A DNA stretch of 64,000 nt from a virus. Positions 3,398-18,839 of this stretch are shown one piece after another. Below the pieces are notes generated by a model. That model saw only the letters and a list, made by a program, of their open reading frames with translations, searched no databases and was not told the DNA's origin. Location: IMG/VR virus record IMGVR_UViG_3300048080_000333; one strand, written 5' to 3'. The translations under genes and the position numbers were made by a program. Position 1 is the stretch's first letter. Each line of letters begins with the position of its first letter.

Positions 3398-4666
3398 ATG
3401 AGAATCGTATGGGTTAGTGACTGGTCGCATCGGCCGGTTCCTACTGGATTTGGTCGTGCCTCCCTCAAGATCCTTTCCTACCTGAAAGAGCGCGGCCACG
3501 AAGTTATTGAAATCGGCGTGGGCTACGAGGGCTATGGTGACGGCCTGCCGTGGCCGACGTATCCGACAACGGCGTATGGGGGCCGACTAGAGGGACAAGA
3601 CGTTGCGCCTCTCGTGGCCGCCGAGCACAGTGCTGATGCGTTGGTCCTGTTCATGGACTTCCCGTACGCTTCGTGGGCTGTACAGTACCACGACCGGCAA
3701 GGCAACGCGCTCGATGAGCGTGTCGTCGAGGCGTTGGACAAGCGGCGTTACGCCCTCTGTCTCTACACGCCTGTCGATGGTGCTTGTATAGACGGGAAGG
3801 TCCCGAGGGTGTGGGAGGGTATTCTTCGTCGCCATCCCTCGTTCGACGCCCTCTCCGCGCCGTCGAAGTTTGGCATCACCCTGCTCTCGAACGCTTCGGG
3901 TATGAAGGCCAGATGGCTCCCGCATGGAGTAGACACGGATCTGTTTCGCCCCGACCAGCCACAGGTCGAGTGTCGCCGGCGCCTCGGAATCCCAGAGGAG
4001 AATTTCACCTTGCTCTATGTCGGCGTCAACAAGCACCGTAAGCAATTGCCGGCGTTCTATGAAACGGCCGCGAAGGTCCAGGCACTTCTGCCCGATGTGC
4101 CGCTGACCGTGATGGTGAATGGTAACGACCGCGATACGGCCTACGATCTCCAGGGGCTTGTGGATGCGTATGGGCTCGAAGCGCGGGGTGCCGCATGCTA
4201 CCGGACCGAAAATCTCACGGACCAGGCTCTTGCCACGTTGTACGGCGCCGCTGATGTGCTCGTTCACACGTCGGGTGGCGAGGGGTTCGGGCTCCCCATT
4301 GTCGAGGCGATGGCGTGCCGCCTGCCCGCTCTCGTAACAGATTATTCGGCTATGGCCGAGTTGGTACCAGACAACGAGATGGGGTGGTGTCGGATTCCAG
4401 TCAAGGCCCTGATTCCCTACCCTGCGAACGGAATCGCGTGGGCGTGGCCCGACACTGACGCTGCTGCAGAACGCCTCGTTGCATTTTGGAAGGATCGGGG
4501 CCTGCGCGTAAGACTCCGGAAGGCCTGCTTCGAAAAGTCGAGGGCGTTCGCGTGGCCCCGGGTCCTACCGTGGTTCGAGAACTGGTTGGAGACGGCTATC
4601 CAGGCCAAGCGGTCAGCCGGGTTCAGGCTTGGTGTCGAGCGCATACGGCCGGATGGAGGAGCCTAA
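3398..4666 (+). CDS. Glycosyltransferase, GT-B fold, GT4 family
   Basis: N-terminal 'VPTGFGR'; 'LLYVGVNKHRKQ'; 'ADVLVHTSGGEGFGLPIVEAMACRLPALVTDYSAMAE' GT4 signature. Confidence 0.92.
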   Translation: MRIVWVSDWSHRPVPTGFGRASLKILSYLKERGHEVIEIGVGYEGYGDGLPWPTYPTTAYGGRLEGQDVAPLVAAEHSADALVLFMDFPYASWAVQYHDRQGNALDERVVEALDKRRYALCLYTPVDGACIDGKVPRVWEGILRRHPSFDALSAPSKFGITLLSNASGMKARWLPHGVDTDLFRPDQPQVECRRRLGIPEENFTLLYVGVNKHRKQLPAFYETAAKVQALLPDVPLTVMVNGNDRDTAYDLQGLVDAYGLEARGAACYRTENLTDQALATLYGAADVLVHTSGGEGFGLPIVEAMACRLPALVTDYSAMAELVPDNEMGWCRIPVKALIPYPANGIAWAWPDTDAAAERLVAFWKDRGLRVRLRKACFEKSRAFAWPRVLPWFENWLETAIQAKRSAGFRLGVERIRPDGGA

Positions 4667-5912
4667 CTTGGACGAGCCAATCGTATTTGGGCAGACCGAG
4701 GGTTTGGAGGGCTTGCGTGAAGAAGCCCGCTCCCGAGCCTATCCAGAGTGGTCAGACGACATGCTCAAGGTCTTGTATGTCGGCGCACACCTCTATCCAA
4801 CAGGGTATGGAGAGGCGTGTCGTTTGCACATGAAGGCCATGAAAGATGTTGGTGTCGGCGTGATGGCGCGGCTGAATCAACTGCCTCCGGTGGGTCTCAA
4901 GCATGAACTTGTCCGGACGGACAACGTTGTCAACGAGATGTTGGACCTGCGGTTTTGGCCGAAGGATCCGGCGCGCCGGAAGCCAGACGCTGGGGTGTGG
5001 CACGTCACGCCGGACACATTTGGACAATTCCCCGACATGAAAAACTTCGGCTATACTGTCTGGGAGACCGTAGGGTTGCCCTACGGATGGGCTGATGCGT
5101 GCAATCGTATGGACGGTCTCCTGACGTGCTCGGAGTTCTCGGCAAGTCTGTTTCGCGAAGGCGGCGTGACGGTGCCGATTCGCGTCTGTCCACACCCTAT
5201 GGATGTCGCGCGTTTCCGACCCGATGTTGACGGCTCTTCGTTCCGAGCGAGTCTCGGCGCTCCCAAGACGGTGTTTCTTGTCGTGTCCCAGTGGATGTTT
5301 CGAAAAGGCGTCGAGGACGCTGTCGTAGCGTACGCCAGCGAGTTCAAGGCCGACGAACCCGTTGCGCTCGTGTTGTTGACGTGGCGGTGGAGCCATGCCG
5401 TCAAAGAGCGCGTCGCCATTAGGGGCTACACGAAGTTTTTGCTGAATGGACTCAACCTCTCGGATACACCCCCAGTGTGGCATATCGGAGACAATTTGCC
5501 TCCGGTGGCGCTGCCCAACGTCTACGCGGCTTCTGACGTGCTCGTGTCGGCGTCCCGCGGCGAAGCGTTCGCGCTCCCCATTTTTGAGGCGGCGGCGTGC
5601 GGAAAGCCCTCCATCTCGACGGGTTGGGGAGGCATGTGGAGCCTCTTGTCCTCCGAGTCGGCCTATCCGGTGGCCTATGATATGGAGACGGTCCACGGAG
5701 CCGGCGCGAGGTGGAAGCACTACCATGCGGGTCAGAAGTGGGCTCGTCCCCGACTCGACGACCTGCGGCGCGCGATGCGTGAGGCCCACGAGGACGTGGA
5801 GGGCCGTACCACGAAGGGCCTACGGGCCTACGAAACCACGATAGAGCACCTGTCCCCCCAGGTCGCTGGTGCAGTGATGCGGGACGCCATTCTGGACCTC
5901 GTGAGGGCTTGA
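4653..5912 (+). CDS. Glycosyltransferase, GT-B fold, GT4 family
   Basis: 'PTGYGEACR'; 'RKG'; 'SDVLVSASRGEAFALPIFEAAACGKPSISTGWGG'. Start uncertain (4653 or 4762). Confidence 0.9.
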   Translation: MEEPNLDEPIVFGQTEGLEGLREEARSRAYPEWSDDMLKVLYVGAHLYPTGYGEACRLHMKAMKDVGVGVMARLNQLPPVGLKHELVRTDNVVNEMLDLRFWPKDPARRKPDAGVWHVTPDTFGQFPDMKNFGYTVWETVGLPYGWADACNRMDGLLTCSEFSASLFREGGVTVPIRVCPHPMDVARFRPDVDGSSFRASLGAPKTVFLVVSQWMFRKGVEDAVVAYASEFKADEPVALVLLTWRWSHAVKERVAIRGYTKFLLNGLNLSDTPPVWHIGDNLPPVALPNVYAASDVLVSASRGEAFALPIFEAAACGKPSISTGWGGMWSLLSSESAYPVAYDMETVHGAGARWKHYHAGQKWARPRLDDLRRAMREAHEDVEGRTTKGLRAYETTIEHLSPQVAGAVMRDAILDLVRA

Positions 5913-5938
5913 CAAGACGTAGGTGTCGATGCTATCGT
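5909..5938 (+). promoter_or_regulatory. sigma70-type promoter TTGACA-18-TATCGT (TGn extended -10)
   Basis: ttgaca agacgtaggtgtcgatgc tatcgt; -35 overlaps the upstream TGA; RBS GGAGG precedes ATG 5970. Confidence 0.55.
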
Positions 5939-5969
5939 GTAGGCATCTGAGTACGCGGAGGGAAGACGG

Positions 5970-6296
5970 ATGGGGATAAAGACTTCGGACCCGGTCGCAG
6001 TGCTGATCGCCCTGCTTGCTACGGCGGTACTGTTCCTCGGCTTCATCGTTCTAGTGACGGTGATTGACGGAGCGGCGTTGATGCTGTTGTGGAACTGGTT
6101 CGCGGTGCCCCTCTTGGGTTTGCCGGCTCTCGCAGGTCTTCCCGCCGCTATCGGTATCGGGTTCGTGGCGGATGTACTGACATCCCGTCGTCTACCGAGT
6201 AAAACCCAGAATGCGTCGGAGGTGCTCTCGGTGCTCTTTGCACGCCCTCTGACGCTCGTGCTGGCAGGTTACATCGTTCACCGATTCTTCCTGTAG
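5970..6296 (+). CDS. Membrane protein (about 3 TM helices)
   Basis: 108 aa, strongly hydrophobic, RBS GGAGGG. Confidence 0.75.
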   Translation: MGIKTSDPVAVLIALLATAVLFLGFIVLVTVIDGAALMLLWNWFAVPLLGLPALAGLPAAIGIGFVADVLTSRRLPSKTQNASEVLSVLFARPLTLVLAGYIVHRFFL

Positions 6297-6305
6297 GTGG
6301 TATCA

Positions 6306-6485
6306 ATGAGCGTGGCCGCTGCCTGGGCGATGGTGGATTACTGGAAGGAGCCCGTCGAACTATCCTGTCTCGACTGCCGCTTCTATTTTACCCTGCCCAG
6401 GGACGAGGCCAAGAAGGCTAGGTTCTGTCCAGTGTGTGGCAAGGCACCACTCTGCAAGCCGGACGCAGACTTCGAGCCCGCATAG
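6306..6485 (+). CDS. Zinc-ribbon protein
   Basis: CLDC ... CPVCG motifs. Confidence 0.65.
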   Translation: MSVAAAWAMVDYWKEPVELSCLDCRFYFTLPRDEAKKARFCPVCGKAPLCKPDADFEPA

Positions 6486-6499
6486 GGGAGGTCCGAACG

Positions 6500-6790
6500 G
6501 TGCGAATCGGGGACATCGTGCTCTACCGAATGGGACTTGATGTCGTCCTTCCGGCCATCGTGACTCATGTGTGGCCGAACAATGTTCTGAACCTGACCGT
6601 GTTCTCGGGTAGCAGTGCAATCCCATACGAGCAGATATCTCCCGAGGGCAATAGAGTGACCGTGTATCCAGACGAGGCTTGGCTTGGGTTCCGTCGGACA
6701 TCCGTGTCCCACGGAAGCAACATTGGCCATTGGCAGCCTCGGGAGCAGGAGTCCATTGACCTTAGTTATCACGGGTGTCGCGAGGGATGA
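6500..6790 (+). CDS. Conserved phage hypothetical protein
   Basis: RBS GGGGAGG before GTG 6500; 'IGDIVLY....PAIVTHV....LNLTVF' is a recurrent small phage family pattern. Confidence 0.7.
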   Translation: MRIGDIVLYRMGLDVVLPAIVTHVWPNNVLNLTVFSGSSAIPYEQISPEGNRVTVYPDEAWLGFRRTSVSHGSNIGHWQPREQESIDLSYHGCREG

Positions 6791-6888
6791 GGGTCGCGAT
6801 GAAGCGGTTGTGGCGTTGGCTCGGGCGGTTGGAGTGTACCCTCTGGGATCTTCAGTGGCGTTACCCCGGGGGTGACCGCGAAGTCTGA
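6787..6888 (+). CDS. Small ORF, 33 aa
   Basis: ATGA overlap at the 5' end and TGATG overlap at the 3' end; fills the gap exactly. Confidence 0.4.
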   Translation: MRVAMKRLWRWLGRLECTLWDLQWRYPGGDREV

Positions 6889-7445
6889 TGGGGCGCCGTC
6901 TGAACATTGGATGTGGGCAAGACATTCGGCCAGTCGCCGAGGGGTGGATCAACGCAGATATTCGTGAGATGCCGGGCGTGGACGTGATATGCGACGCGCG
7001 GCATTTGCCATTCATGGACAACTACTTCGAAGAAGTCCTCGCCTACGATCTCTTGGAACACTTTTCTGTTTTTGATGCGCCCCTGCTGCTTCGGGAATGG
7101 CGACGTGTACTAGTGCCCGATGGTATCTTGCGTCTTCGGGTGCCGGATGTTCGAAAGATAGCCTTTCGGTTGCATGACAGGACTCTTAGGCCGGATTCCG
7201 ACAGAATCCAGAAGCCTAACCCCGAAGTCGGCGTTGTAACCGGCGAACATGTGGCTCTCTGGTTGCTGTACGGAGATCAGTCTTCGGCGTGGGGTGGATC
7301 CGAGTTCGGTGCCCACAAATGGGGATATACGACGCTCACGCTTGCACAATTTCTCGACGAAGAAAAGTTCGCACTTGTTTCCATACACGGTGACCCCGCT
7401 GGGCACGATCAGAATATCTACGCCAATGCACGGAGGGTAGGATGA
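6888..7445 (+). CDS. Class I SAM-dependent methyltransferase (type 11-like)
   Basis: 'LNIGCG', 'INADI', 'VICDARHLPFMDNYFEEVLAYDLLEHF', 'WRRVLVPDGILRL'. Confidence 0.88.
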   Translation: MGRRLNIGCGQDIRPVAEGWINADIREMPGVDVICDARHLPFMDNYFEEVLAYDLLEHFSVFDAPLLLREWRRVLVPDGILRLRVPDVRKIAFRLHDRTLRPDSDRIQKPNPEVGVVTGEHVALWLLYGDQSSAWGGSEFGAHKWGYTTLTLAQFLDEEKFALVSIHGDPAGHDQNIYANARRVG

Positions 7446-7873
7446 CTGCTAGGAACGCTCTGCTTATTGACGTGCCTGACATCGTATCCATCGAGTCCGC
7501 GGCCTTCGGACCCGACCTGCGGTGGACGGACGAGGACCTGCGGTCGGAGGTCGATCAGGGCCGCGTGATCGTCTGTGAATTGGATGGTGTGAGCAGGGTT
7601 GTTGGGTACGCGGCATTCAAAATCAGGGATGGTGTTGGAACGCTGAACAGCGTGGCCGTTCATCCACACTGGCAATCTCGTGGCATTGGGGGCTTTCTGA
7701 CGACGCAGGCCGTAGCGCGTATGCAGGACGCTGAGTGTATCGAGTTGGATTGCAACACCGATCTCGTACCGTTCTACCGACGCTTCGAGTTCGACGTGTG
7801 TGGATTCTACACAACGGGCGTTGGGCTGAAGCAACGAGCCCGCGTCACGATGCGGAGGATGCCCTGTGCATAG
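7442..7873 (+). CDS. GNAT acetyltransferase (RimI-like)
   Basis: 'LNSVAVHPHWQSRGIGGFL' motif A; 'FYRRFEF' motif B. Confidence 0.88.
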   Translation: MTARNALLIDVPDIVSIESAAFGPDLRWTDEDLRSEVDQGRVIVCELDGVSRVVGYAAFKIRDGVGTLNSVAVHPHWQSRGIGGFLTTQAVARMQDAECIELDCNTDLVPFYRRFEFDVCGFYTTGVGLKQRARVTMRRMPCA

Positions 7874-8048
7874 GACCCCTGTGGACGGTCGGGTTTATGC
7901 TATCGGGGAACTGACCGTTGGATTCCTCGTGACATTGGTGGAGCCGAACGGTGTCCAGACCCGTCATGCCGCTTTGACTGTCGCCCAGGTAGTGGCTATT
8001 ATCAAGGGCTTCGGTCTAGACATGTTCGAACAGGACACGGCCCACTAG
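7866..8048 (+). CDS. Hypothetical protein
   Basis: 60 aa, RBS GGAGG, overlaps the upstream gene. Confidence 0.55.
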   Translation: MHRTPVDGRVYAIGELTVGFLVTLVEPNGVQTRHAALTVAQVVAIIKGFGLDMFEQDTAH

Positions 8049-8056
8049 AGGCCAGC

Positions 8057-8710
8057 ATGAAGCCTTCCATCGAGTTAGTCCTCTACGTCTACAACGAGGC
8101 CGAACATCTCGAACGAGCCATCTTGTCGGCTATCAATGACGTGGACGAAGTGACCGTGTGGGATACAGGTAGCACGGATGGAACGCTTGACATCGCTCAA
8201 ACGTACGCCGACCGGCTCTATCGGCTCGCTGTGCCAGAGGAAGCGATGGATTTCGGCGAGATCGAGACGATGGTGATGCACCTGGCTCGGTGCGACTGGG
8301 TGTTCCGGTTGGACGGAGACGAGGAACTGGGGCGGCGTGACCCGAGATCGTGCCTCAAATCCCTGATTATGAGCGGTTCGGCCGGCGCCTGGGGTCTTGC
8401 CCGCTACCGCTGGGCAGACATGGACCGAGTCCACCAAGTCGAGAAGGAGGCCTGGCCCGATTATCAATACCGACTCGTTCTGAACGATGGTCGGAGTCGG
8501 TTCGTGGGGCCACTACATCCGAACTTCGAGACGGAGCATCGCATCGGTCGGACAACGGATCTATACCTCGATCACTACGTCGATCCTCTACACTTGCGGG
8601 CCGGGGAACGGTTGGAGCAACGCAATCGACTCTATGCGCGATTGGCGGCGAAAGCCGGGAAAGCCCCAGAGGGATCGGCGGAAGCGATGAAGTTGGCGGG
8701 GAGCCGATGA
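8057..8710 (+). CDS. Glycosyltransferase, GT-A fold, GT2 family
   Basis: 'YVYNEAEHLERAI...DEVTVWDTGSTDGT'; DxD in 'WVFRLDGDE'; 'PDYQYRL'. Confidence 0.9.
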   Translation: MKPSIELVLYVYNEAEHLERAILSAINDVDEVTVWDTGSTDGTLDIAQTYADRLYRLAVPEEAMDFGEIETMVMHLARCDWVFRLDGDEELGRRDPRSCLKSLIMSGSAGAWGLARYRWADMDRVHQVEKEAWPDYQYRLVLNDGRSRFVGPLHPNFETEHRIGRTTDLYLDHYVDPLHLRAGERLEQRNRLYARLAAKAGKAPEGSAEAMKLAGSR

Positions 8711-9354
8711 GCGCGCCACCCGAGAGCCTCTACCGTCCCTACAACGAGAGGCTCGTGGCAGCGTTGGGCCTCGACTGGTTCGACATCGCGCGTACTTACG
8801 CAGAGACTGGAGGCACCCCGGGCATCTACCCCGATGTGGCGCTTCTTCTGGAACGGCTCGTCGCACGGGAGGACGTGTGTAGCATCGCGGAGATCGGATC
8901 GGGTGTTTCGACGCTGTACCTGGCTGCGGCGGCCGAGAAGTACGGCAAGCGGTTCGTCTCTATCGAAGAAGACGTCTCTTGGATGTATAGGGTACACTAC
9001 CTTCTGGATAAGTATGGATTCGGTTTGACCGAAATCGACCACTATGACGCACGGGCACCCTTACCAAAGTGTGATGCTGTGTTCCTCGATTCTACGGCAG
9101 AACTCCGAAGACATCTGTTAGTACAAGAGGTGGCATACCTGTGGGACCGCCCCTGGATTCTGCTAGACGACTACAACTTCCTCACTTTCGCTAAACCCGC
9201 CGATGCGTTCCAACGAGCGGCGGGACGGAGTAGCGTCATCTATCAGCCCGTCCACGAGCGAGCCGACCGGGTCGTCCTTATCAGTACACCTACTTACTCT
9301 GGGCCGGGCTGGCCAGGGGATGTCGAGGGTTGGCTCAAAGGTTGGCTACCGTGA
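8707..9354 (+). CDS. Class I SAM-dependent methyltransferase-like protein
   Basis: ATGA overlap; 'IAEIGSGVSTL', 'FVSIEED', 'DAVFLDS', 'ILLDD'. Confidence 0.75.
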   Translation: MSAPPESLYRPYNERLVAALGLDWFDIARTYAETGGTPGIYPDVALLLERLVAREDVCSIAEIGSGVSTLYLAAAAEKYGKRFVSIEEDVSWMYRVHYLLDKYGFGLTEIDHYDARAPLPKCDAVFLDSTAELRRHLLVQEVAYLWDRPWILLDDYNFLTFAKPADAFQRAAGRSSVIYQPVHERADRVVLISTPTYSGPGWPGDVEGWLKGWLP

Positions 9355-10178
9355 GCCTCTCCGTGGTGACTATTGTCAGCCAGGCTGTTAGGCTGAAATA
9401 TCCCATCGCTGCCGTCCTGGAATCTGTGGCCCCTATTGCCGACGAGATCGTGGTGAACATAGACACTTCTCACGACGACGGAACATGGCAACTTGTCTTC
9501 GAGAAATTGTCGCGCATACTGGCGGTAAAGCAGGCTCAGGGATTGCCATTATCGGAGCGGATGCACTACGGCCGCATCGTGGAATCTCCCTGGAACTGGG
9601 AGGCGCGGGACGCCGGTCAGGAACTCGCCCGCCAGACCAATCGCGCCTTCGAGGCATGTACTAAGGACTGGATTCTCTACATCCAGGCCGACGAAGCCGT
9701 CCATGAGGACGACTACGAAGATATTCGGTGGATTCTCGACCTTCCAGAGGAGTTCACAGCCGCCGAATTCATGCGTCTCTATTTCTTCGGATCGCCAACA
9801 GTCCTTCGGAAAGATTGGACGCAGCCCCTCGTCCGAATGTTTCGCCGGGGCAAAGCGCGAAGCGTTGGCGACGCGATGAACTGCGAAGCAGATGGTCTCG
9901 TGTGGTTCCACACGGATGGGACGCCCCGTCTTTTTCACTACACCCGGGTCGCCGACGCCGAAACGATTGGGAGGCGTATTCGGAACCTCGATGCGCTGTT
10001 TCACGCCCCCGAAGAACTCGATGATGAGCGGCCCTACGATTTTCGGTTACGGGACGTGGACGGGCACCTCAAGGGTCGGGATGCACGGCTACCACAGAAA
10101 AATCCGAAGGACGTACTCGTGCCCTACCTTGACACACACCCAGCAGTTATGCTAAAATGGTTGAAGGAGAATCGGTGA
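9351..10178 (+). CDS. Glycosyltransferase, GT-A fold, GT2 family
   Basis: 'LKYPI...LESVAPIADEIVVN....HDDGT'; 'QTNRAFEAC..DWILYIQADE' DxD-like motif. Confidence 0.85.
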   Translation: MSLSVVTIVSQAVRLKYPIAAVLESVAPIADEIVVNIDTSHDDGTWQLVFEKLSRILAVKQAQGLPLSERMHYGRIVESPWNWEARDAGQELARQTNRAFEACTKDWILYIQADEAVHEDDYEDIRWILDLPEEFTAAEFMRLYFFGSPTVLRKDWTQPLVRMFRRGKARSVGDAMNCEADGLVWFHTDGTPRLFHYTRVADAETIGRRIRNLDALFHAPEELDDERPYDFRLRDVDGHLKGRDARLPQKNPKDVLVPYLDTHPAVMLKWLKENR

Positions 10179-11198: not shown

Positions 11199-11205
11199 GT
11201 ATCGT

Positions 11206-11868: not shown

Positions 11869-12861
11869 ATGCAGACTGTTCTTGTCACTGGAGCCGGTGG
11901 GTTCATCGGCAAGATGCTCGCGAAAGCCCTGCAACTCGCGGGCCTTCGCGTTGTCGGTTTGTTCCGGGACATACCAGAGTATTTTCGCTCCCATACATCG
12001 GAGCAGTCCTCCCGGACCATCGCCGTGTTCGGCGACATCGTAGATAGCGACGGTCTTCTCCGTGTCCTCGTGAACTACGACGTGGACGCAGTCGTTCATC
12101 TTGCCGCCCATTCGGCCGTGAAGAAGTGTGAAGAGAACCCACGACCGGCCTATCTGACGAATGTCATGGGCGTTGTGTCTCTACTCGATGCTTGTCGGTT
12201 GCGGCACCGAGACCATCCCCTGTCGAAGATCGTCGTGGCTACCACGGATAAGGTCTATGGGGACGGCGACGTTCCCTATGTTGAATACCAGCCCCTTCGG
12301 GCCAAGGGACCCTACTCGACCTCGAAGGTCTGCGCGGACTACATCGCGAGGGACTACGGAGCGACCTACGGTCTGCCAGTCGTTGTTGCCCGCTCCTCGA
12401 ACGTCTACGGCCCCGGTGACACGGAGCCTACGCGGTTGATTCCTGGCAGCATCCAACGCTTGCTCCGCGGTGAGTCCGCCATCGTGTACGAATCCGCACT
12501 TGAGATGGAGCGGGAATTCGTTTACATCGCGGACGAGGTGAGTGCGTACCTCACGCTACTGTTTGAACCAACAAAACCCGACCACACCATTTTCAATATC
12601 GGAGGTTCTGGTCCTGTTCCTGTCGTGAGCGTTGTGAAGCGATTGGCTGCTTTGTGCAAGGGTGCCTACGAGATCCGACCGAGCAGCCACAGGGAGATTG
12701 GGCGTCAGTACGTGGACGCTTCTCGGCTCCACGCGCTCGGGTGGAGGCAGCATACGACCCTGGACGATGGGCTCCGGCTGACCGTCGAGTGGTTCAGATC
12801 GCAGCGGGCTAAGGCGACGCAAGGGATGGTTGCCATTCCTGGACCCGAGGCGGCCCGTTGA
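11869..12861 (+). CDS. NAD-dependent nucleotide-sugar epimerase/dehydratase (extended SDR, 4,6-dehydratase-like)
   Basis: 'VLVTGAGGFIG'; 'VHLAA'; 'TTDKVYG'; YxxxK 'YSTSK'; 'NVYGPGD'. Confidence 0.92.
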   Translation: MQTVLVTGAGGFIGKMLAKALQLAGLRVVGLFRDIPEYFRSHTSEQSSRTIAVFGDIVDSDGLLRVLVNYDVDAVVHLAAHSAVKKCEENPRPAYLTNVMGVVSLLDACRLRHRDHPLSKIVVATTDKVYGDGDVPYVEYQPLRAKGPYSTSKVCADYIARDYGATYGLPVVVARSSNVYGPGDTEPTRLIPGSIQRLLRGESAIVYESALEMEREFVYIADEVSAYLTLLFEPTKPDHTIFNIGGSGPVPVVSVVKRLAALCKGAYEIRPSSHREIGRQYVDASRLHALGWRQHTTLDDGLRLTVEWFRSQRAKATQGMVAIPGPEAAR

Positions 12862-13433
12862 TTCGCGCCATTTTTCTCGCCATTTTGGCGGTTGCGACCG
12901 CCTCCGGACTCGCATTGGCAACGATTCCGCCATGGAGCGTCGCCGCCGTGTTTGGGGACAGTGGTCAGCCCATCGGGACGGCCTATCGTGCCGGGGGCGT
13001 CGTTCGGACCGTAGCCCACGTTGCCGAGTTCGCTAGAGGGGTTGGTTGGCCTAGAGAAATGATGTACGGCGTTTCGATCCTCTGCCGTGACGTAGGAACG
13101 GACAGTGCGACACTCGACACAGCGGCCCCACTCGCCGATCTGGATGTGGGTGATCTTCCCCCACTTGGCGGGGGAATTACGCTAGTCGGGTACAGGTTCG
13201 GTCGGGCAGTCGAAACGTTCACGTCCAAAATTATTGGGACGATGGAAAGTGTACGTACAGAAGATGGCGTAGTCGTCGGACCTGTTGTGCTCATCAAATT
13301 CCTGGGTTCGCCGCGTGGGATGAGCGGCGGCCCCGTACTGTACCGGAACAGAGTGGTCGCCACCATCGCATTGTTCAACGGCGAGCAAATCTATGCTGTA
13401 CCTCTTGCCGCGGCAAAATGCGGGACGCGCTAA
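12858..13433 (+). CDS. Secreted trypsin-like (S1) serine protease
   Basis: Hydrophobic signal-like N-terminus; 'TVAHV' (His), 'D', 'GMSGGPV' (Ser). Confidence 0.8.
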   Translation: MIRAIFLAILAVATASGLALATIPPWSVAAVFGDSGQPIGTAYRAGGVVRTVAHVAEFARGVGWPREMMYGVSILCRDVGTDSATLDTAAPLADLDVGDLPPLGGGITLVGYRFGRAVETFTSKIIGTMESVRTEDGVVVGPVVLIKFLGSPRGMSGGPVLYRNRVVATIALFNGEQIYAVPLAAAKCGTR

Positions 13434-13673: not shown

Positions 13674-14312
13674 ATGCCTATTCAATTGTTTGACGGTCAC
13701 GTCCCGCCTCCTTACGATGCGAACGCCCCAGCGCGTCTGTTCGAGCGATGGAAGATTATGGCGGCTACGCAGAACTACCCGAGTGGTGTCGATCACTACT
13801 TGGGCGACGAAGCCGTCAATGCGTGCAAACGATTGTTTCACCAACCGATGAAACTACTCTTTCTAGGCTGTGGGAATGGCACCGAGGTCAAGCGGACCCT
13901 CGAAATGGGCCACGACTCGTGGGGCGTGACGCTCAACCCGAACAACTCTGTGTGGGCTCGTGAGGAATTGGGTCTGTGGAATGTCTACTACCACGACGCC
14001 CATCTGAATCCAGTCGAGTGGAATGGGAGTTTCGACGGGGTTCTCGGGTTTCAGTTTCTGGAGCATACGCCATCACCAATTCTTTTGCTTATGGAAGTGG
14101 AGCGGATCCTGCGCCCTGGCGGCATCACGTACTTCGAAACACCTGGACCCGAGGGCTTTACCGGAGGCTCAAATCTCCATCACGTTACGTGTCCGACGCG
14201 CACCCAGGCCCATGGGTGGATGCTGAAGGTGGGGTTCACGGATATTCAGGTAGAGGAAATCGGTCCTCCCGACGCTGCGAGGCACCTATCCATCTTCGGG
14301 AGGAAGACATGA
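13674..14312 (+). CDS. Class I SAM-dependent methyltransferase (type 11-like)
   Basis: 'LLFLGCGNG', 'FDGVLGFQFLEH', 'ERILRPGG'. Confidence 0.88.
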   Translation: MPIQLFDGHVPPPYDANAPARLFERWKIMAATQNYPSGVDHYLGDEAVNACKRLFHQPMKLLFLGCGNGTEVKRTLEMGHDSWGVTLNPNNSVWAREELGLWNVYYHDAHLNPVEWNGSFDGVLGFQFLEHTPSPILLLMEVERILRPGGITYFETPGPEGFTGGSNLHHVTCPTRTQAHGWMLKVGFTDIQVEEIGPPDAARHLSIFGRKT

Positions 14313-15088
14313 GCGAGCCACAGTTCTCCATCATCGTGCCTTCGATGGGTCGCGAGGATCTGCTCGACTGTTTGTGGGGAAGCCTCGACCGGGCACCGGG
14401 GGCGCGTGACTACGAGGTATGCTTTGGTCTCGATCCGGCCGGCAGTATACATGCGCGTAGCGACGTTCTGTTAGCCACAGGCAATAGACTTTGTTTCGGG
14501 ATGGCCCGGACGCCCGGCATGTCGTCGGCGGTGAACGCGGCTTTTTCGTTATCGCAGGGCGAATGGCTCGTCCTGGTCCCGGACGATGTTGTGTTTCTGC
14601 CCGGGTGGGACGACTTCTCCTTCGGTCTTCGGGAAAATCGCGCCCTGTGCTTCGAACTGCTGGAGCCGCTTCCGGGGTCGTTCCCTCCTCCGGTTCTGGC
14701 CGGTGAGTCACCACAGGATTACGACGGTAACATAGCCTCGCGCGCAGCCCGTGAACGCGCAAAGAACCCTGTTAGTCGTGTCCCAGGAGAGTTCTTTGTC
14801 GGGGCCGCGCTGATCCATCGTTCACGGTGGGTACGGTGGCCGGAGCACGCGGATCCCTACAGCATGAACGATATCGCGTGGATGCGCGAAACCTATCTGA
14901 CACATCCAGACCTTGCGTTCGGTCGGATGCCGAGGAACTGCTTGTACCATTTTGTGCGGGGGAGCGTACGTGCGGCCGGGATTCAGGCGCCCGAGGACAC
15001 GGGGCAACGATTCTTGACACACTACGGCCTATCCATCCAAGACGCTTACCAGAGTATTTACCGGCGGAGCGAAGCGTTATGGATTTGA
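14309..15088 (+). CDS. Glycosyltransferase, GT-A fold, GT2-like (paralogue A1)
   Basis: 'FSIIVPSMGR', 'NAAFSLSQGEWLVLVPDD'; ATGA overlap. Confidence 0.8.
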   Translation: MSEPQFSIIVPSMGREDLLDCLWGSLDRAPGARDYEVCFGLDPAGSIHARSDVLLATGNRLCFGMARTPGMSSAVNAAFSLSQGEWLVLVPDDVVFLPGWDDFSFGLRENRALCFELLEPLPGSFPPPVLAGESPQDYDGNIASRAARERAKNPVSRVPGEFFVGAALIHRSRWVRWPEHADPYSMNDIAWMRETYLTHPDLAFGRMPRNCLYHFVRGSVRAAGIQAPEDTGQRFLTHYGLSIQDAYQSIYRRSEALWI

Positions 15089-15828
15089 ACATCTCTATCG
15101 TGGTCCCTTCGATGGGCCATCCAGGGCTATTTACACGGTTCTTGGACAGTCTCGTCCGAACGGCATCGCGGGGATACGAGGTCTGCTTCGGTTGGGATCC
15201 AACCGGCGGTACTGTGACGGTTCATCCCGGCAACGGATCATATCGTTTGCGGTCTCTCATCGCGCGCGCCCCTGGAATGCACGAAGCAATCCAGGCTGCT
15301 GTGTCCATCGCTACAGGCGATTGGCTTATCATGGTTCACGATGATATGATTTTTCTTCCGGGTTGGGACGACTTCTCGTTTGGGTTGGACCCCGACTTGA
15401 TGCTGTGCTTCGAACTGCTGGATGCCCAAGCCCTGACGTGGCCCCCGGCTATAGTTCGGGAAGACGCCGTCGAGGCCGCTGCTGCACGAAAGGGTCTCCG
15501 CGCACGAGTGAGGATCGGTGGGCCGTTCTTCGGGACATCGCTGTGCCACCATTCCAGGTGGGTCCCGTGGCCCTCTTGGTCCGGCACGAAGTATCGTACG
15601 CACGACACGGCATGGATGGTGGAGACGCACCGTCGGCACCCCGACCTCGCCTTTGGATGGATGCCTGGTAACTGTCTCTACCACGACATCTCGGGTAGTG
15701 TTCGGCACAAGACGGACATCGAGCCCGACGACCCAGATGAGTTTATGCGACGCTATGGTATGTCGGTTCCCGAGGCGTGCAAGCAGATATACGCCCATAG
15801 TCGTGGGGTGAGAGGGGATATCGCGTGA
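15079..15828 (+). CDS. Glycosyltransferase, GT-A fold, GT2-like (paralogue A2)
   Basis: 'ISIVVPSMG', 'GDWLIMVHDD'; shares 'YEVCFG.DP' and 'FLPGWDDFSFGL' with A1. Confidence 0.8.
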   Translation: MDLNISIVVPSMGHPGLFTRFLDSLVRTASRGYEVCFGWDPTGGTVTVHPGNGSYRLRSLIARAPGMHEAIQAAVSIATGDWLIMVHDDMIFLPGWDDFSFGLDPDLMLCFELLDAQALTWPPAIVREDAVEAAAARKGLRARVRIGGPFFGTSLCHHSRWVPWPSWSGTKYRTHDTAWMVETHRRHPDLAFGWMPGNCLYHDISGSVRHKTDIEPDDPDEFMRRYGMSVPEACKQIYAHSRGVRGDIA

Positions 15829-16742
15829 AAATTCTTGTCACAGGGGCTTCCGGTTTCATAGGCCGGGCTGTTGCTGCTACGCTCTATGGACGTGGCTACG
15901 AGGCCGTCGGCATAGACAGGCACCCGAAAGAGATTCCTGGGTTGGCATCTCAGGTGCAGGGGGATCTGACGAACGCTGCGTGGATGGCAGAAATTATGGA
16001 GGATCTCGTAGCCTCTAGCGATGGCGTTATCAACCTCGCCGGCCTCCTCGGGACGGCCGAACTGCTCCGCGACATTCGTCCCGCTATCGAAGCCAACATC
16101 GTGGCCGCTGCCGAACTGATGCTAACATGTCGGCACCACGATAAGCCCCTGGTGCAGATTAGCCCTGGAAACGCCTCATGGCTCTCCGTCTATCCTATCA
16201 CCAAGATATGCGCCGACCGTTTGGCCCTCGCGCTTGGTCAAGATACGGGTCTGAAAGTGGCCATTGTCCGGGCCATGAACGTGTATGGCCCCTGGCAGAA
16301 GCACGCACCTGTGAAGAAGTACATCCCCAACCTGATTCGTTGGGCTCTCCTGGGACAGCCGGCCGAAATCTATGGAGACGGCGAACAGATCATGGACGCC
16401 ATTTGGGTCGGCGACGTGGCGGAGATTCTCGTCCGTGCTCTCGAATGGTTCACAAATCACCACAGTAACCCACCGACAGTATTTGAAGCCGGTCTCGGGC
16501 GCTCTCTGATGGTCAATACCGTGGCTGACCTAGTATGGGACGCTGTCCAACCCGGTGTGCTGGCCCCCGCCAAGATTTATCTTCCGATGCGCCCGGGCGA
16601 GCCCATCGGATCGCGAACGGTCGCCGACCCGTGGACTCTGTCCCCACTGGGTATCGTCCCGTTGGATTTGCGGCTGTTCAAGGACGGTCTCCGGGAGACC
16701 GTAGCATGGTACCGGGAGCATCCCGAAATCCTGGGGTTGTAG
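15825..16742 (+). CDS. NAD-dependent nucleotide-sugar epimerase/dehydratase (extended SDR)
   Basis: 'ILVTGASGFIG'; 'INLAG'; YxxxK 'YPITK'; 'NVYGP'; 'YGDGEQ..D..WV.D'. Confidence 0.92.
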   Translation: MKILVTGASGFIGRAVAATLYGRGYEAVGIDRHPKEIPGLASQVQGDLTNAAWMAEIMEDLVASSDGVINLAGLLGTAELLRDIRPAIEANIVAAAELMLTCRHHDKPLVQISPGNASWLSVYPITKICADRLALALGQDTGLKVAIVRAMNVYGPWQKHAPVKKYIPNLIRWALLGQPAEIYGDGEQIMDAIWVGDVAEILVRALEWFTNHHSNPPTVFEAGLGRSLMVNTVADLVWDAVQPGVLAPAKIYLPMRPGEPIGSRTVADPWTLSPLGIVPLDLRLFKDGLRETVAWYREHPEILGL

Positions 16743-16811
16743 GCTGCGCTGGTCGTTGTAGAAACCCCCTAATGGGCATCACTTTCCTTTGGAGCAGGTT
16801 TCTTCTGTGAG
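16743..16811 (+). repeat. Copy 2 of the ~68-bp imperfect direct repeat
   Basis: gttgtaga-N11-gggcatcactttcctttgga-N2-aggt...gtgag. Confidence 0.85.
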
Positions 16812-17820
16812 TGTCCAACCTTCGGTGTCTCTTGTCTATGCGATGATGCAGCAGGATCGACTAGAGTCGGTCCGGCATAATCTGACGCGCGTCCTACCGT
16901 TTGTGGACGTCGCCGTGATCGTAGACAATGGCTCGACGGACGGTACCCGCGAGTGGTTGCGGCAGCAAGAAAAAGTTCGTCTTATCGAGCGTGTCTGGAA
17001 CGACTCCTTCGTTGAGGGTCGAAACGCCTACCTTCGCGCCATCGACGAATTGGCTGCGGGGTACCCGGGCGAGACGGTGTTCTGCACGGCCGACGACGAT
17101 GAACTCTATTCCGATCCGTTGCTGCAGCACCTTCGCTCGTTGGCACGAGAGACGTACCTCGACGACATCAACTTCCTTCGTATCCGTGTAAAAGATACGG
17201 AAACAGATTGGAATGGGGATGTCATCCGGTCCCAGATAGGTGGTTGGTACAAGCCACTGATCTATGTCTGGGAACCCGGGATTCGCTACGTCGGGGTCAA
17301 CAACAGCGAAGTACACGAGGACTTGTTCATCCCATCAGGTGTGAGATCCCGTCGGCTCGATGACAAGAACGGGACCTATTTCTACGAGCACCGCAAGAAA
17401 TGCGGGGAGATATGGCCCCGGGCCATTCGTAACGCCTTCGCCGGCGGCGGAGGGATGAACCTCGGTGAGCAGTGTCCGTGGTGGCGCGACTTCCAACGGC
17501 TCGTGAGGGAGGAGACCGGCGCGGAAACGTCGGATGCCTTCCTCCGGTTCCTTCGAGACGCTCCACAACTTCCACCCCGGCTCGCCGAATTCTTCGTCTC
17601 GAAGCGCCTGTTGGGGACACAGTGGGACTCGACACCGCCACAGTGGCCTGGATGGCCGGATGGCACCTCGGAGTGGCGTGAGGGGTTTCTCAGTTACTAC
17701 CTCTACTTCCACCCGGAGTGCATGCCGCTTGATCTAATCGAGCGGGATAGGCCCTACAAGGACTACCGAAAAGAATGTCTTGTGATCCACGGTCCAGCGT
17801 CGCCTGAGTGGGCTAAGTGA
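16807..17820 (+). CDS. Glycosyltransferase, GT-A fold, GT2-like (paralogue B1)
   Basis: 'VIVDNGSTDGT', 'WNDSF...RNAYL', 'ADDDELYS'. Start chosen by alignment to B2. Confidence 0.85.
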   Translation: MSVQPSVSLVYAMMQQDRLESVRHNLTRVLPFVDVAVIVDNGSTDGTREWLRQQEKVRLIERVWNDSFVEGRNAYLRAIDELAAGYPGETVFCTADDDELYSDPLLQHLRSLARETYLDDINFLRIRVKDTETDWNGDVIRSQIGGWYKPLIYVWEPGIRYVGVNNSEVHEDLFIPSGVRSRRLDDKNGTYFYEHRKKCGEIWPRAIRNAFAGGGGMNLGEQCPWWRDFQRLVREETGAETSDAFLRFLRDAPQLPPRLAEFFVSKRLLGTQWDSTPPQWPGWPDGTSEWREGFLSYYLYFHPECMPLDLIERDRPYKDYRKECLVIHGPASPEWAK

Positions 17821-18839
17821 TTGACGACGCGCAACCCATCCAGGTGATGGGTGCCCTCCTCTGTCAAGATCGCTTCGAGGACGTGAAGCGGCACATCTTT
17901 CGGGTTCTGCCCCATGTCGACCACTACGTCATTGTAGACAATGGGTCGGGGCCGGAAATGCAAGCGTGGCTTCGGAACTTTGCTCGGGTGAACGTTGAAG
18001 TCATCTTTCGGAAATGGAACGACTCGTTCGCCGACGCCCGCAACACCTACCTCGCGGTAGCGGAGCGTCTCGCTCAGAAAGACCCTGACCGGCCCGTGTT
18101 CATCGCTGCGGCCGACGACGACGAACTCTACTCCGACGAATTGCTTGCTGATCTACGTAAGATTGCCCGCTGGGTGTACCTGGAGGACTGCAACGTCCTC
18201 CGGCCCTTCTCGATGAACGCCGACCTCGACTGGAGGGGCGACCGCATCACGGAGTGGCGAGGCGGATACTACAAACCGCTGATGTTTATGTGGGAACCAG
18301 GGATGCGGTACGAAGACGCCCCTGGCCATTTCCACGAGGACATGAAAATCGTATCGGGATGGCGCGTCCAGAATCTCGATGACGAACAGGGCAAGTACGT
18401 GTACTGGCACGCGAAGCGGTTCGGTGAGACATGGCTTCGCGCCACGAGAAATTTCTTCGCAGGTGGCGGCGGACCCAACCTCGGCGAACGGAACCCCTTG
18501 TGGAAGCCGTTCCGCGAACTATTCACCCAGCAGGGCATCACGACCTCGGACCAAATGCAAGCGTATTTGCGGGCCGGGAGCATCGACCCTGCCATCAAAG
18601 CATGGTTCGTCAACCAACGCTACCTCGGCACACCGCACGACCCGACTCCGCCACTGTGGACCGAGTGGCCAGACGGTACCAGCGAGGTTCGAGAAGGATT
18701 CCTGGCGTACTTCGTTTTTCTGCACCCTGGGGAGATGCCGACGAATGTCTTCGAGTACGACCGAGCACACGGCATCGACCATGCCAAAGATACTCGAATC
18801 ATCCACGGCCCGGCCGCACCAGACTGGGCAACCGCGTAG
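17817..18839 (+). CDS. Glycosyltransferase, GT-A fold, GT2-like (paralogue B2)
   Basis: 'VIVDNGS', 'WNDSFADARNTYL', 'ADDDELYS'; collinear with B1 over its whole length. Confidence 0.85.
   Translation: MIDDAQPIQVMGALLCQDRFEDVKRHIFRVLPHVDHYVIVDNGSGPEMQAWLRNFARVNVEVIFRKWNDSFADARNTYLAVAERLAQKDPDRPVFIAAADDDELYSDELLADLRKIARWVYLEDCNVLRPFSMNADLDWRGDRITEWRGGYYKPLMFMWEPGMRYEDAPGHFHEDMKIVSGWRVQNLDDEQGKYVYWHAKRFGETWLRATRNFFAGGGGPNLGERNPLWKPFRELFTQQGITTSDQMQAYLRAGSIDPAIKAWFVNQRYLGTPHDPTPPLWTEWPDGTSEVREGFLAYFVFLHPGEMPTNVFEYDRAHGIDHAKDTRIIHGPAAPDWATA

Follow-up and report, generated by a model that had tools for sequence, protein, structure and literature searches.

The 64,000-nucleotide stretch of phage DNA analysed here (the window) carries, at positions 3398–18839, a coherent glycan-assembly island within the late, structural part of the genome, as an earlier sequence-only reading had proposed. 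We favour, with somewhat more confidence than doubt, its interpretation as a hypervariable virion-protein glycosylation island – a much larger, differently placed variant of the Corndog and Che8 systems. Because the gene set found at this site differs between related phages, it is probable, judging from their genes, that phages of this kind decorate their own particles with glycans specific to the strain; such coating has so far been shown in mycobacteriophages only, and at a much smaller scale. The phage is uncultured, and the sole sequencing run in which the stretch was found comes from DNA of a sediment metagenome.

The island comprises 23 co-directional ORFs, mostly overlapping, in about 15 kb a little way 5' of the tail-tube gene. 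Pfam matches, nine overlaps of the 4-nt type and a gene call made independently on another assembly of this sequence confirm both the gene inventory and the tight coupling on one (+) strand that had been claimed. All eight glycosyltransferases – two GT4 and six GT2-type – were found, although among the latter three are solid, two are recognised by profile only and one is weak. The accompanying enzymes are two extended SDRs, an HxGH nucleotidyltransferase, MazG, a GNAT and, where three SAM methyltransferases had been listed, two clear ones (Methyltransf_11) and one below the cut-off (8707–9354). None of the eight glycosyltransferases has membrane segments. Loss of catalytic residues, named earlier as a possible refutation, is not seen: E-x7-E in both GT4s and D-x-D, DD or ADE in the GT2s are retained in orthologues.

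A protein target is suggested by a tandem pair of enzymes, the core GT2:

16807–17820 (or from 16789), + strand: core GT2, first copy (Pfam GT2, 34.2 bits)
17817–18839, + strand: core GT2, second copy (Pfam GT2, 27.2 bits)

Each joins an N-terminal GT-A domain (D-x-D-E) to a C-terminal domain that is helical and conserved. When the AF2 model (pLDDT 93) was compared with the PDB by Foldseek, SunS/ThuS came out on top (4e-13 to 1e-11, the next family following at 3e-8); the top Swiss-Prot match was SunS (2.8e-13), and the sequence profile retrieved GmaR (2e-5) and SunS, and nothing else, from the whole PDB. Among solved structures, the core GT2 stands closest to glycosyltransferases of proteins or peptides – to SunS/ThuS in fold, to GmaR and SunS in profile. 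The fold match to SunS/ThuS exceeds that to generic GT-A enzymes by no more than 2–3 Z units (TM about 0.46), at only 13–16% identity to SunS/ThuS/GmaR. The glycocin S-glycosyltransferases SunS/ThuS and the flagellin O-GlcNAc transferase GmaR, whose GT domain moves GlcNAc onto flagellin (PMC9638930), are built alike, with a helical domain for substrate recognition behind the GT-A (GT2) domain, and act in the cytoplasm on protein or peptide prior to export or assembly; the C-terminal domain of the core GT2 differs from theirs in its own motifs (AGGGGxNLG and DG(T/S)SExRE) and in having no recognised TPR. A tblastn search of 50,697 deposited phage genomes gave no match to the core GT2, and identity with the Che8 or Corndog enzyme was rejected on this ground.

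Conserved genes lie on either side of the island:

1473–2229, + strand: conserved pair of small ORFs (142 and 102 aa), presumably head–tail joining proteins
19071–19846, + strand: a conserved 94-aa ORF, then a 158-aa putative tail-tube protein, 3' of the core GT2 in every relative
19894–26084, + strand: conserved tail genes, including a 1013-aa tape-measure-sized ORF (22077–25118) and a Gp80-like protein

In every metagenomic relative – with tail-tube proteins 56–83% identical to the window's – this position is occupied by an island of sugar or methyl genes, different in content, with conserved tail genes 3' of it; the synteny search that had been suggested thus revealed a fixed site with gene turnover. 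Four relatives share 15, 9, 9 and 3 of the 23 island ORFs, as against 8–9 of 9 tail genes. Other sugar genes take the place of the missing ones in relatives, encoding a DegT aminotransferase, a cupin, a DUF4254 protein, a phosphatase and additional methyltransferases. The core GT2 is the sole island enzyme kept in all relatives, and lies 1–1.5 kb 5' of the tube gene in seven independent metagenome contigs (L001, L013/L002, L011/L004, L010/L007, L018, L019 and L021); as all these phages are related, common ancestry rather than function may account for the link. None of the relatives examined has MazG, the GNAT or the weak third methyltransferase, which are therefore not core parts.

The island had been placed between a head–tail connector (1473) and the tail tube (19370). 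The protein at 19370–19846 resembles tail-tube clusters in language-model features (0.95), although neither its AF2 model (pLDDT 34) nor a profile search of the PDB (no match) confirms the tube fold. The connector label is a weak lead: the ORFs at 1473–2229 have orthologues in L010 (60–62% identical), and 1473–1901 gave weak adaptor-like leads from Atlas and nothing stronger. Further 3', the L007 ORF at the tape-measure position (913 aa, with a precomputed PhageMin_Tail match) has no tblastn match to the 1013-aa ORF of the window, and a 699-aa tail-fibre match (26363–28462) lies just beyond the conserved tail genes.

This position beside the tube gene, rather than beside replication genes, is one of several reasons to regard hypermodification of the phage DNA, through a glycosylated modified base, as very improbable. 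According to PMC12619734, citing Pyle 2024, DNA is the target of many phage glycosyltransferases; the phage has an unusually rich nucleotide metabolism (MazG, an NDT-like protein, a dATP/dGTP diphosphohydrolase and ThyX), and in L008, another phage lineage, a distant core GT2 homologue (31%) sits in a sugar island adjoining the DNA polymerase gene (PolA). Against this, the ORFs scanned, which represent part of a 96.7-kb contig, include no ThyA-type hydroxymethylase or TET/JBP-like enzyme, the phage's DNA methylase is of the N6/N4 type, the closest solved relatives work on peptides and proteins, and eight glycosyltransferases with O-methylation far exceed what known DNA glycosylation systems need.

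At its 5' end, the island opens with the GT4 pair:

2844–3272, + strand: 142-aa protein with no assigned function, directly 5' of the GT4 pair in three lineages
3275–3331, + strand: conserved cis element at the head of the GT4 block
3398–4666, + strand: GT4 glycosyltransferase (GT-B; Pfam Glycos_transf_1, 71.6 bits; E-x7-E conserved)
4668–5912 (or from 4629), + strand: second, more divergent GT4-like protein (Pfam 31–33 bits; E-x7-E conserved)
16755–16811, + strand: second copy of the cis element, in which the GTG at 16807 is the core GT2 start

The 142-aa protein has no family match, and is 51–59% identical to L013:2327–2752 and L010:3587–4006. The cis element, for which no conserved RNA fold was found, recurs in diverged form at the equivalent position in L010; in the window it is followed by a 23-codon upstream ORF (3327–3398), whose TAA overlaps the GT4 ATG. 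The first GT4 has chlorovirus B736L (3.4e-9) and PimA as its best PDB sequence matches and is invariably paired with the second; a predicted contact between them is weakly supported (score 0.34, best control 0.00).

Between these two ends lie the remaining enzymes:

5970–6296, + strand: 108-aa protein with 3–4 membrane segments; nearest clusters are viral membrane proteins
6888–7445, + strand: SAM methyltransferase (Methyltransf_11, 34 bits), common to L010
7442–7873, + strand: GNAT acetyltransferase (Pfam 51 bits), overlapping the preceding gene by 4 nt
8057–8710, + strand: GT2 (GT-A; Pfam 40.9 bits; D-G-D motif)
8707–9354, + strand: weak methyltransferase-like ORF (Methyltransf_24, 18 bits, under the cut-off)
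9330/9351–10178, + strand: weak GT2-like ORF (Pfam 24.7 bits, cut-off 23.3; conserved Q-A-D-E)
10157/10178–10528, + strand: MazG pyrophosphohydrolase (Pfam 40 bits)
10525–11019, + strand: HxGH nucleotidyltransferase (CTP_transf_like, 46.9 bits; reads H-Y-G-H), common to L010, L011 and L019
11164–11676, + strand: NinG/HNH-like zinc-finger protein, basic at its N-terminus; an island gene in three lineages
11860–12861, + strand: extended SDR, 4,6-dehydratase-like (Epimerase, 168 bits; reads T-T-D-K and Y-S-T-S-K)
12858–13433, + strand: trypsin-like protein with an N-terminal hydrophobic segment (reads G-M-S-G-G-P)
13674–14312, + strand: SAM methyltransferase (Methyltransf_11, 43 bits)
14309–15088, + strand: paralogous GT-A glycosyltransferase 1 (Pfam GT2 18.7, below cut-off)
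15079–15828, + strand: paralogous GT-A glycosyltransferase 2 (Pfam GT2 19.0, below cut-off)
15825–16742, + strand: second SDR, epimerase or reductase (Pfam 125 bits)

The 108-aa membrane protein, the trypsin-like protein and the NinG/HNH-like gene had not been listed before; an SDR adjoining a Trypsin_2 gene also occurs in L010 and L011. Among solved structures, the GT2 at 8057–8710 matches GmaR first (5.5e-9) and then SunS (1.3e-5). For the weak GT2-like ORF, no single stretch passes the cut-off despite the 24.7-bit score; it has no PDB match, and hhalign relates it to the core GT2 family with E 6e-4 at a probability of 28%. The paralogous pair, whose kinship is visible as repeats D1, D8 and D16, is by its profile matches a GT-A pair despite the sub-cut-off Pfam scores: the family profile (A4) finds GT-A structures only in the PDB, GalT1/CgT first (3e-5), followed by SpsA, chondroitin synthase and TarS.

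Such a mixture could also arise at a recombination hotspot that gathers unrelated sugar, methyl and nucleotide auxiliary genes, with several small, independent activities on different targets (protein, small molecule, DNA) and no single product. MazG, the GNAT, the NinG/HNH-like gene, a zinc-ribbon ORF and membrane ORFs are indeed interspersed, content differs strongly among relatives – with HNH genes inserted in L010/L007 – and the two cis element copies divide the island into at least two units. We nonetheless hold this improbable: 14 of the 23 ORFs follow one functional theme (sugar activation, dehydration/epimerisation, transfer, methylation), relatives exchange genes inside that theme (DegT, cupin, SDRs, methyltransferases) rather than random cargo, and the stop/start overlaps suggest co-translation.

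Somewhat less remote, yet still unlikely, is modification of a host cell-envelope glycopolymer – a teichoic-acid-like polymer, a secondary cell-wall polymer or an S-layer glycan – by soluble phage glycosyltransferases acting on host lipid-linked intermediates exported by the host, which might block superinfection or keep progeny off cell debris. The nucleotidyltransferase resembles the envelope-precursor enzymes RfaE domain II (its best NCBIfam match, 70 bits, cut-off 181) and TagD (41 bits), three island proteins have membrane segments, an SLH-domain mini-gene lies in or beside the island, and surface polysaccharide loci typically take the form of variable islands like this one. Moreover, the soluble GT-A teichoic-acid transferases TarP, TarS and RmlT likewise match the core GT2 fold, and so the missing Wzx, Wzy and Gtr genes, previously taken to point to protein glycosylation, are a weak argument. 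These transferases target host wall polymers and leave export to the host, and TarP is prophage-encoded. On the other side, no initiating phosphoglycosyltransferase, flippase, ABC transporter, polymerase, ligase or GtrA/GtrB occurs among the scanned ORFs; the membrane protein at 5970–6296 matches no GtrA or flippase family and is unique to this phage, with no homologue among the relatives; the genes are co-directional among structural genes, not at a lysogeny or moron position; and the conserved enzyme is nearest to protein/peptide glycosyltransferases.

Virion-protein glycosylation, as the sequence-only reading had proposed, is the best-supported interpretation, with both the core GT2 and the GT2 at 8057–8710 closest to SunS/ThuS/GmaR or GmaR/SunS. 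It would be a phage-encoded, cytoplasmic process aimed at the phage's own particle proteins. The nucleotidyltransferase would activate a host sugar phosphate, the 4,6-dehydratase-like SDR and the second SDR would turn it into a deoxy or epimerised sugar, the SunS/GmaR-like GT2 (two copies) would put the first sugar on a structural protein before assembly, and the GT4 pair and remaining GT2s would lengthen the glycan, which the methyltransferases would cap. The identity of acceptor and sugar, the sequence of these steps, a late timing of expression and the product's place on the virion are inferred. 'Complete pathway', as it had been called, goes too far: there is no kinase or mutase for a sugar-1-phosphate, MazG, the GNAT and the third methyltransferase fall outside the core, and with scores far short of any NCBIfam equivalog cut-off, neither the nucleotidyltransferase nor the two SDRs point to a particular sugar.

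The likeliest acceptors would be the neighbouring tail-tube subunit, in which neither a Ser/Thr-rich tail nor an acceptor motif is obvious, or a repeat-built, fibre-like protein encoded 5':

3–1127, + strand: C-terminal 374 aa of a V/A/P/T-rich, repeat-built protein, open at the window edge
1158–1463, + strand: adaptor-like virion protein (Pfam Gp77, fibre–tail adaptor, 36.1 bits, cut-off 27)

The repeats of the first, of period about 20 inside two units of ~146 aa, have counterparts in period-20 repeat proteins preceding the island in L010 (1–1848) and L013 (303–2300); it has no Pfam or PHROG match, probably serves as fibre or decoration, and is a candidate for receiving the glycan. The adaptor-like protein has a 58% identical orthologue in L010, likewise Gp77.

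As far as the summaries of Freeman et al. 2023 in PMC11600133, PMC12619734 and PMC12363180 go, mycobacteriophage capsid and tail-tube subunits are glycosylated, the systems being Corndog gp35–38, Che8 gp108–110 and that of Myrna. They share with the island phage-encoded soluble glycosyltransferases and an O-methyltransferase – in Corndog within the rightward structural operon – but have 2–4 genes and no sugar-nucleotide synthesis, whereas the 23 ORFs here include eight glycosyltransferases as well as a nucleotidyltransferase and SDR enzymes of the island's own. The precedent of glycosyltransferases among structural genes, invoked earlier, applies to Corndog alone among experimentally studied phages (PMC4351075, PMC11256854): its O-methyltransferase and three glycosyltransferases lie between portal and protease genes (PMC4351075), the island's between joining genes and tube gene, while those of Che8-type Maravista (cluster F1) lie near the 3' genome end (PMC4351075, PMC11256854). 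Antibody evasion cannot be the selective force here, given a sample of sediment or groundwater origin.

Bacterial flagellin islands and serine-rich-repeat adhesin systems (GtfA/GtfB, GalT1) likewise set strain-variable sugar, methyl and glycosyltransferase genes, acting in the cytoplasm, among genes for polymerising surface structures. A GT4 paired with a GT4-like gene is a further common trait, and the 14309/15079 family matches GalT1/CgT of the Fap1 pathway first. The island GT4s, however, show no specific kinship with GtfA or GtfB, and their predicted contact is weakly supported; the element, moreover, is viral and lacks Maf and nonulosonic-acid genes. Chlorovirus and mimivirus capsid or fibril clusters, too, combine virus-encoded sugar-nucleotide enzymes, cytoplasmic glycosyltransferases and methyltransferases for the virus's own particle, although these are eukaryotic giant viruses, and the B736L match of the first GT4 is a likeness barely above that to PimA or sucrose-phosphate-synthase-like GT4s. 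Smaller phage cassettes, of putative function, occur in two cultured siphoviruses, Synechococcus phage S-CBS4 (portal, GT group I gene, methyltransferase, then head genes) and Tetrasphaera phage TJE1 (nucleotidyltransferase, kinase, epimerase, methyltransferase and glycosyltransferase directly before terL and portal); they differ from the island in position and in having one glycosyltransferase each, and their GT4s are distant homologues of that at 3398–4666.

The island occupies window positions 3398-18839 and contains 23 ORFs, all on the + strand, with short stop/start overlaps at nine gene junctions; genes called independently on a second assembly of this DNA have the same starts. The inventory proposed by the sequence-only reading is confirmed, one GT2 and one methyltransferase being weak; three further genes were missing from it.

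Annotated genes of the island, with Pfam scores
3398-4666, + strand: first GT4 glycosyltransferase (Glycos_transf_1, 71.6 bits, cut-off 26.4)
4668-5912 (also called as 4629-5912), + strand: second GT4 (Glycos_transf_1, 31.4 bits, cut-off 26.4)
5970-6296, + strand: 108-aa protein with 3-4 membrane segments (missing from the earlier list)
6888-7445, + strand: Methyltransf_11 (34 bits)
7442-7873, + strand: GNAT (51 bits)
8057-8710, + strand: solid GT2 (Glycos_transf_2, 40.9 bits, cut-off 23.3)
8707-9354, + strand: weak Methyltransf_24-like protein (18 bits, under the cut-off)
9330-10178, + strand: borderline GT2 (24.7 bits, cut-off 23.3, no single passing stretch)
10157-10528, + strand: MazG (40 bits)
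10525-11019, + strand: HxGH nucleotidyltransferase (46.9 bits)
11164-11676, + strand: NinG/HNH-like protein (missing from the earlier list)
11860-12861, + strand: extended SDR, SDR1 (168 bits)
12858-13433, + strand: trypsin-like protein with an N-terminal hydrophobic segment, reading G-M-S-G-G-P (missing from the earlier list)
13674-14312, + strand: Methyltransf_11 (43 bits)
14309-15088, + strand: GT2 below the cut-off (18.7 bits)
15079-15828, + strand: GT2 below the cut-off (19.0 bits)
15825-16742, + strand: extended SDR, SDR2 (125 bits)
16807-17820 (or from 16789), + strand: solid GT2, first core copy (Glycos_transf_2, 34.2 bits)
17817-18839, + strand: solid GT2, second core copy (Glycos_transf_2, 27.2 bits)

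All eight glycosyltransferases lack a hydrophobic segment. Orthologues on related contigs keep the catalytic residues, whose loss would have counted against the sequence-only reading: E-x7-E for both GT4s (three orthologues of each compared), and D-G-D, Q-A-D-E, D-D and D-x-D-E among the GT2s. The two GT2s below the cut-off are mutual paralogues (repeats D1, D8 and D16 within the window); their family profile matches GT-A glycosyltransferase structures exclusively in the PDB (best GalT1/CgT, 3e-5) and shows no relation to the core GT2 by hhalign (probability 0.2). The family of the borderline GT2 at 9330 aligns weakly to that of the core GT2 (hhalign, E 6e-4) and has no PDB match. A predicted complex of the two GT4s scored 0.34 (best of three controls 0.00), in a range where scores are more often wrong than right; 51 of 78 solved complexes attain the score mark, as do 2 of 108 mismatches.

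The main new finding comes from related contigs. Homologues of the putative tail-tube protein encoded just downstream (19370-19846) occur on several metagenome contigs at 56-83% identity, and among these relatives and others reached via the core GT2 one order recurs: a core-GT2 homologue, usually an ORF of 94-97 aa, the tube gene 1-1.5 kb downstream and then the same tail genes. Seven independent contigs or contig pairs show it (L001, L013/L002, L011/L004, L010/L007, L018, L019 and L021), and gene content was compared with the window in four of them.

Island and tail genes shared with the window
L010/L007 (NCBI; core GT2 78% identical): 15 of 23 island ORFs and 8 of 9 tail genes; island of about 16 kb, without GNAT and MazG and with extra cold-shock protein, cupin, YAcAr and HNH genes
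L013/L002 (JGI): 9 of 23 island ORFs and 9 of 9 tail genes; about 8 kb, with two GT4s, a GT2, an SDR, the core GT2 and a Methyltransf_24
L011/L004 (SRR277300xx): 9 of 23 island ORFs and 8 of 9 tail genes; three SDRs, a DegT aminotransferase, DUF4254, methyltransferases and the nucleotidyltransferase
L001: 3 of 23 island ORFs (only 10 kb visible) and 8 of 9 tail genes; methyltransferases, a cupin and a phosphatase

Related contigs carry an island at the same place with differing content. Because gene content differs upstream of a conserved anchor – the core GT2 and the tube gene – the island is a locus of fixed position and variable content, with a single conserved enzyme at its core. Such turnover could also describe a mere hotspot for cargo, and the interspersed MazG, GNAT and HNH genes would suit one; the genes swapped in nevertheless keep a consistent sugar theme, and we regard this explanation as improbable. 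The core GT2 and the tube gene also have close homologues (up to 84% identity) on L017, L018, L020 and L022, contigs with 'Hain-H14/H43' and '01um' in their names, which we take to denote Hainich groundwater 0.1-um-filter metagenomes.

What the conserved enzyme resembles is the best available guide to what the island acts on. The core GT2, a tandem pair in the window and likewise in L007/L010 and L017, has invariant D-x-D-E, H-E, A-G-G-G-G-x-N-L-G and D-G-(T/S)-S-E-x-R-E motifs across 17 aligned homologues (alignment A1). Its AlphaFold model (pLDDT 93.1) places a GT-A domain ahead of a helical one; in a Foldseek search of the PDB, SunS/ThuS come out on top (4e-13 to 1e-11, the next family at 3e-8), in an alignment that extends to residue 322 of 337, and SunS is also the best Swiss-Prot match. 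The family sequence profile reaches three sequences only at E < 0.01 in the PDB – GmaR (2e-5) and two SunS entries – and the solid GT2 at 8057-8710 independently ranks GmaR first (5.5e-9), then SunS (1.3e-5). By predicted structure and profile, the core GT2 combines a GT-A domain and a putatively acceptor-binding helical domain with a similarity to SunS/GmaR above that to generic GT2 enzymes. SunS and ThuS are glycocin S-glycosyltransferases, and the N-terminal domain of GmaR puts GlcNAc on flagellin (PMC9638930). These matches, which speak of similarity rather than activity, suggest that the island acts on protein.

Virion-protein glycosylation is the most likely function of the island, a reading that we hold with modest confidence. 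The sequence-only interpretation is partly supported, its idea of a complete pathway being overstated. Modification of the host cell envelope is unlikely by comparison. The absence of a flippase, once taken to favour protein glycosylation, does not dispose of it, because soluble wall-teichoic-acid glycosyltransferases match the core-GT2 fold too. Against it, the island holds no initiating transferase, exporter or ligase: Pfam and NCBIfam searches of its ORFs found none of the genes of a Wzx/Wzy- or ABC-dependent locus (initiating phosphoglycosyltransferase, flippase or ABC transporter, polymerase or ligase), nor the GtrA family match or GT2 with a membrane segment expected of GtrABC serotype conversion. 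The sole multi-pass membrane protein (5970-6296) is unique to this phage and matches uncharacterised viral membrane proteins only, with no match to a flippase family.

The sugar-supply enzymes all fall below NCBIfam equivalog cut-offs, and it is here that the complete pathway is not borne out. SDR1 comes nearest to the 4,6-dehydratases of dTDP-glucose (159 bits, cut-off 365), CDP-glucose (125) and the LegB type (122); its sequence reads T-T-D-K and Y-S-T-S-K, which presumably fit a 4,6-dehydratase. SDR2 is a more distant, putative epimerase or reductase (NCBIfam, 73 bits), and the closest matches of the nucleotidyltransferase at 10525-11019 are RfaE domain II (70 bits) and TagD (41 bits). No equivalog-level matches to RmlA, RmlB, RmlC or RmlD of the Rml-type 6-deoxyhexose pathway were found in the island, whose nucleotidyltransferase has the HxGH rather than the RmlA fold; a cupin is absent from the window and present in L010 and L001. 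The island would thus turn a sugar phosphate of the host into an NDP-sugar of deoxy or epimerised type. The trypsin-like gene (12858-13433) adjoins the 4,6-dehydratase-like SDR, an adjacency that recurs in L010 and L011, where the equivalent genes carry Trypsin_2.

Placement of the island inside the morphogenesis module is well supported by synteny, with the individual flank labels putative; the 'connector' at 1473 has weak adaptor-like leads only. Upstream, 1158-1463 matches Gp77, a fibre-tail adaptor, above the Pfam cut-off. Downstream, the tube protein resembles tail-tube clusters (language-model score 0.95; the 10 best family-bearing matches all in one clan), and its gene is followed by small conserved ORFs, a tape-measure-sized ORF of 1013 aa (22077-25118), a Gp80-like protein and the tail fibre, a 699-aa protein that matches tail-fibre PHROGs. 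The tail-tube label rests on language-model similarity and synteny, because the AF2 model (pLDDT 34) and the profile search of the PDB both failed to recover the fold. PHROGs and Pfam gave almost nothing for the small flanking ORFs. In L007 the ORF at the tape-measure position (913 aa) carries PhageMin_Tail and has no tblastn match to its window counterpart.

In three lineages, long V/A/S/T-rich proteins with repeat units of ~20 residues are encoded ahead of the island (window 3-1127, L010 1-1848, L013 303-2300); these may be fibre or decoration proteins and the acceptors of the glycan. N-glycosylation was considered and rejected, because the 11 N-R-T sequons of the L010 repeat protein correspond to D/E-R-P in the window's repeats. 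Among the joining genes lies a stand-alone SLH-domain gene of 57-62 aa (2660-2833; precomputed Pfam SLH on a second assembly), which has no homologue in the relatives examined.

A cis element occurs in exactly two copies in the window, one 5' of the GT4 block (3275-3331) and one 5' of the core GT2 pair (16755-16811). The GTG of the second is the start of the core GT2; that of the first opens a 23-codon ORF running to 3398, its stop overlapping the GT4 ATG. A diverged version, G-G-T-A-C-T-C-T-T-A-C-T-T-G-G-A-C-A, stands at the same two places in L010 (4028 and 17759) and nowhere else in the loci. As RNA the element has no consensus fold (-0.44 kcal/mol), no Rfam families were found within window 1-22 kb, and sigma-70 and terminator scans stayed at chance level. 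It is probably a promoter-like signal splitting the island into at least two units.

Among the replication genes of the window are a UDG-PolA fusion, an N6/N4 DNA methylase and a primase-polymerase/helicase. That the island glycosylates phage DNA is very improbable. The ORFs scanned at 40-61 kb, in a window that is two thirds of the 96.7-kb contig, gave ThyX, a MazZ-like diphosphohydrolase and the N6/N4 methylase and no acceptor-base enzyme (hydroxymethylase, TET/JBP). In favour of the DNA reading, L008, a separate phage lineage, has a distant core-GT2 homologue next to PolA.

To our knowledge, the only tailed phages with demonstrated virion glycosylation are a few mycobacteriophages, with two to four genes, where it is explained as antibody shielding. 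In Corndog, the portal and protease genes flank one O-methyltransferase gene and three glycosyltransferase genes (PMC4351075), and capsid and tube subunits are glycosylated in Che8, Corndog and Myrna, as far as later accounts relay it (Freeman 2023, via PMC11600133, PMC12363180 and PMC12619734). Synechococcus phage S-CBS4 and Tetrasphaera phage TJE1 have small glycosyltransferase-methyltransferase cassettes in or next to morphogenesis genes. The island putatively resembles all these systems in its working, yet is not a member by homology: tblastn with the core GT2 found no match among 50,697 phage records, and thus no relation to the Che8 and Corndog enzymes, and no mycobacteriophage appears among the organisms listed for the GT4 matches. 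It also differs in being several times larger, having sugar-nucleotide enzymes, preceding the tube gene and being hypervariable.

More tentatively, this sediment and groundwater lineage may keep a hypervariable, O-antigen-like 'virion serotype' locus, pairing a fixed primer with a swappable gene set. The SunS/GmaR-related core GT2, fixed beside the tail-tube gene, would prime a structural protein, on which the swappable sugar-synthesis, transferase and methylation genes would build a strain-specific glycan. As these phages never meet antibodies, diversification would need another driver, such as host defences or receptors reading the virion surface, grazers or adsorption to particles. The locus is far larger than the mycobacteriophage systems, would make its own activated sugars, and has its genes exchanged one by one among related phages of the environment round a conserved protein-glycosyltransferase-like enzyme; if it does glycosylate virions, complex glycans would be common on phage particles, and diversifying selection would act on them even where no animal host is involved. 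This would bear on phage-host recognition, environmental persistence and phage engineering, and would add a soluble protein-glycosyltransferase family that uses new donor sugars.

The source of the window is clearly a tailed phage, with nearly all its long ORFs on the + strand. It comes from a metagenomic contig of 96,749 bp, about 33 kb of which lies outside the window; a sediment metagenome DNA run is the sole sequencing run found to contain the stretch, and groundwater assemblies also contain close relatives. Megablast with the island and tblastn with the first ORF found no near relative among the 50,697 deposited genomes of INPHARED; IMG/VR scans with single proteins and the core-GT2 alignment likewise returned no relative, and a GTDB genome scan gave a distant archaeal match only.

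Three further observations concern genes away from the island. A MazZ-like dATP/dGTP diphosphohydrolase (49268-49741), a nucleoside deoxyribosyltransferase-like protein (48834-49328) and ThyX (57844-58575) hint at possible non-canonical nucleotide metabolism. In the L008 lineage (SRR17165162, a 97.7-kb contig), a sugar island that spans at least 12.6 kb (1-12600, running off the locus edge) lies directly upstream of PolA – with GT4, GT2, HAD, NTP_transferase, methyltransferase, SDR, hexapeptide acetyltransferase, DegT and sulfotransferase-like genes – and an intein-containing ribonucleotide reductase is found downstream. Finally, window 50799-53130, far from the tail genes, encodes a protein of 393 aa whose C-terminal part is a ClpP domain and then a 341-aa Trypsin_2 protein, which may be head-maturation genes displaced from the remaining structural module.
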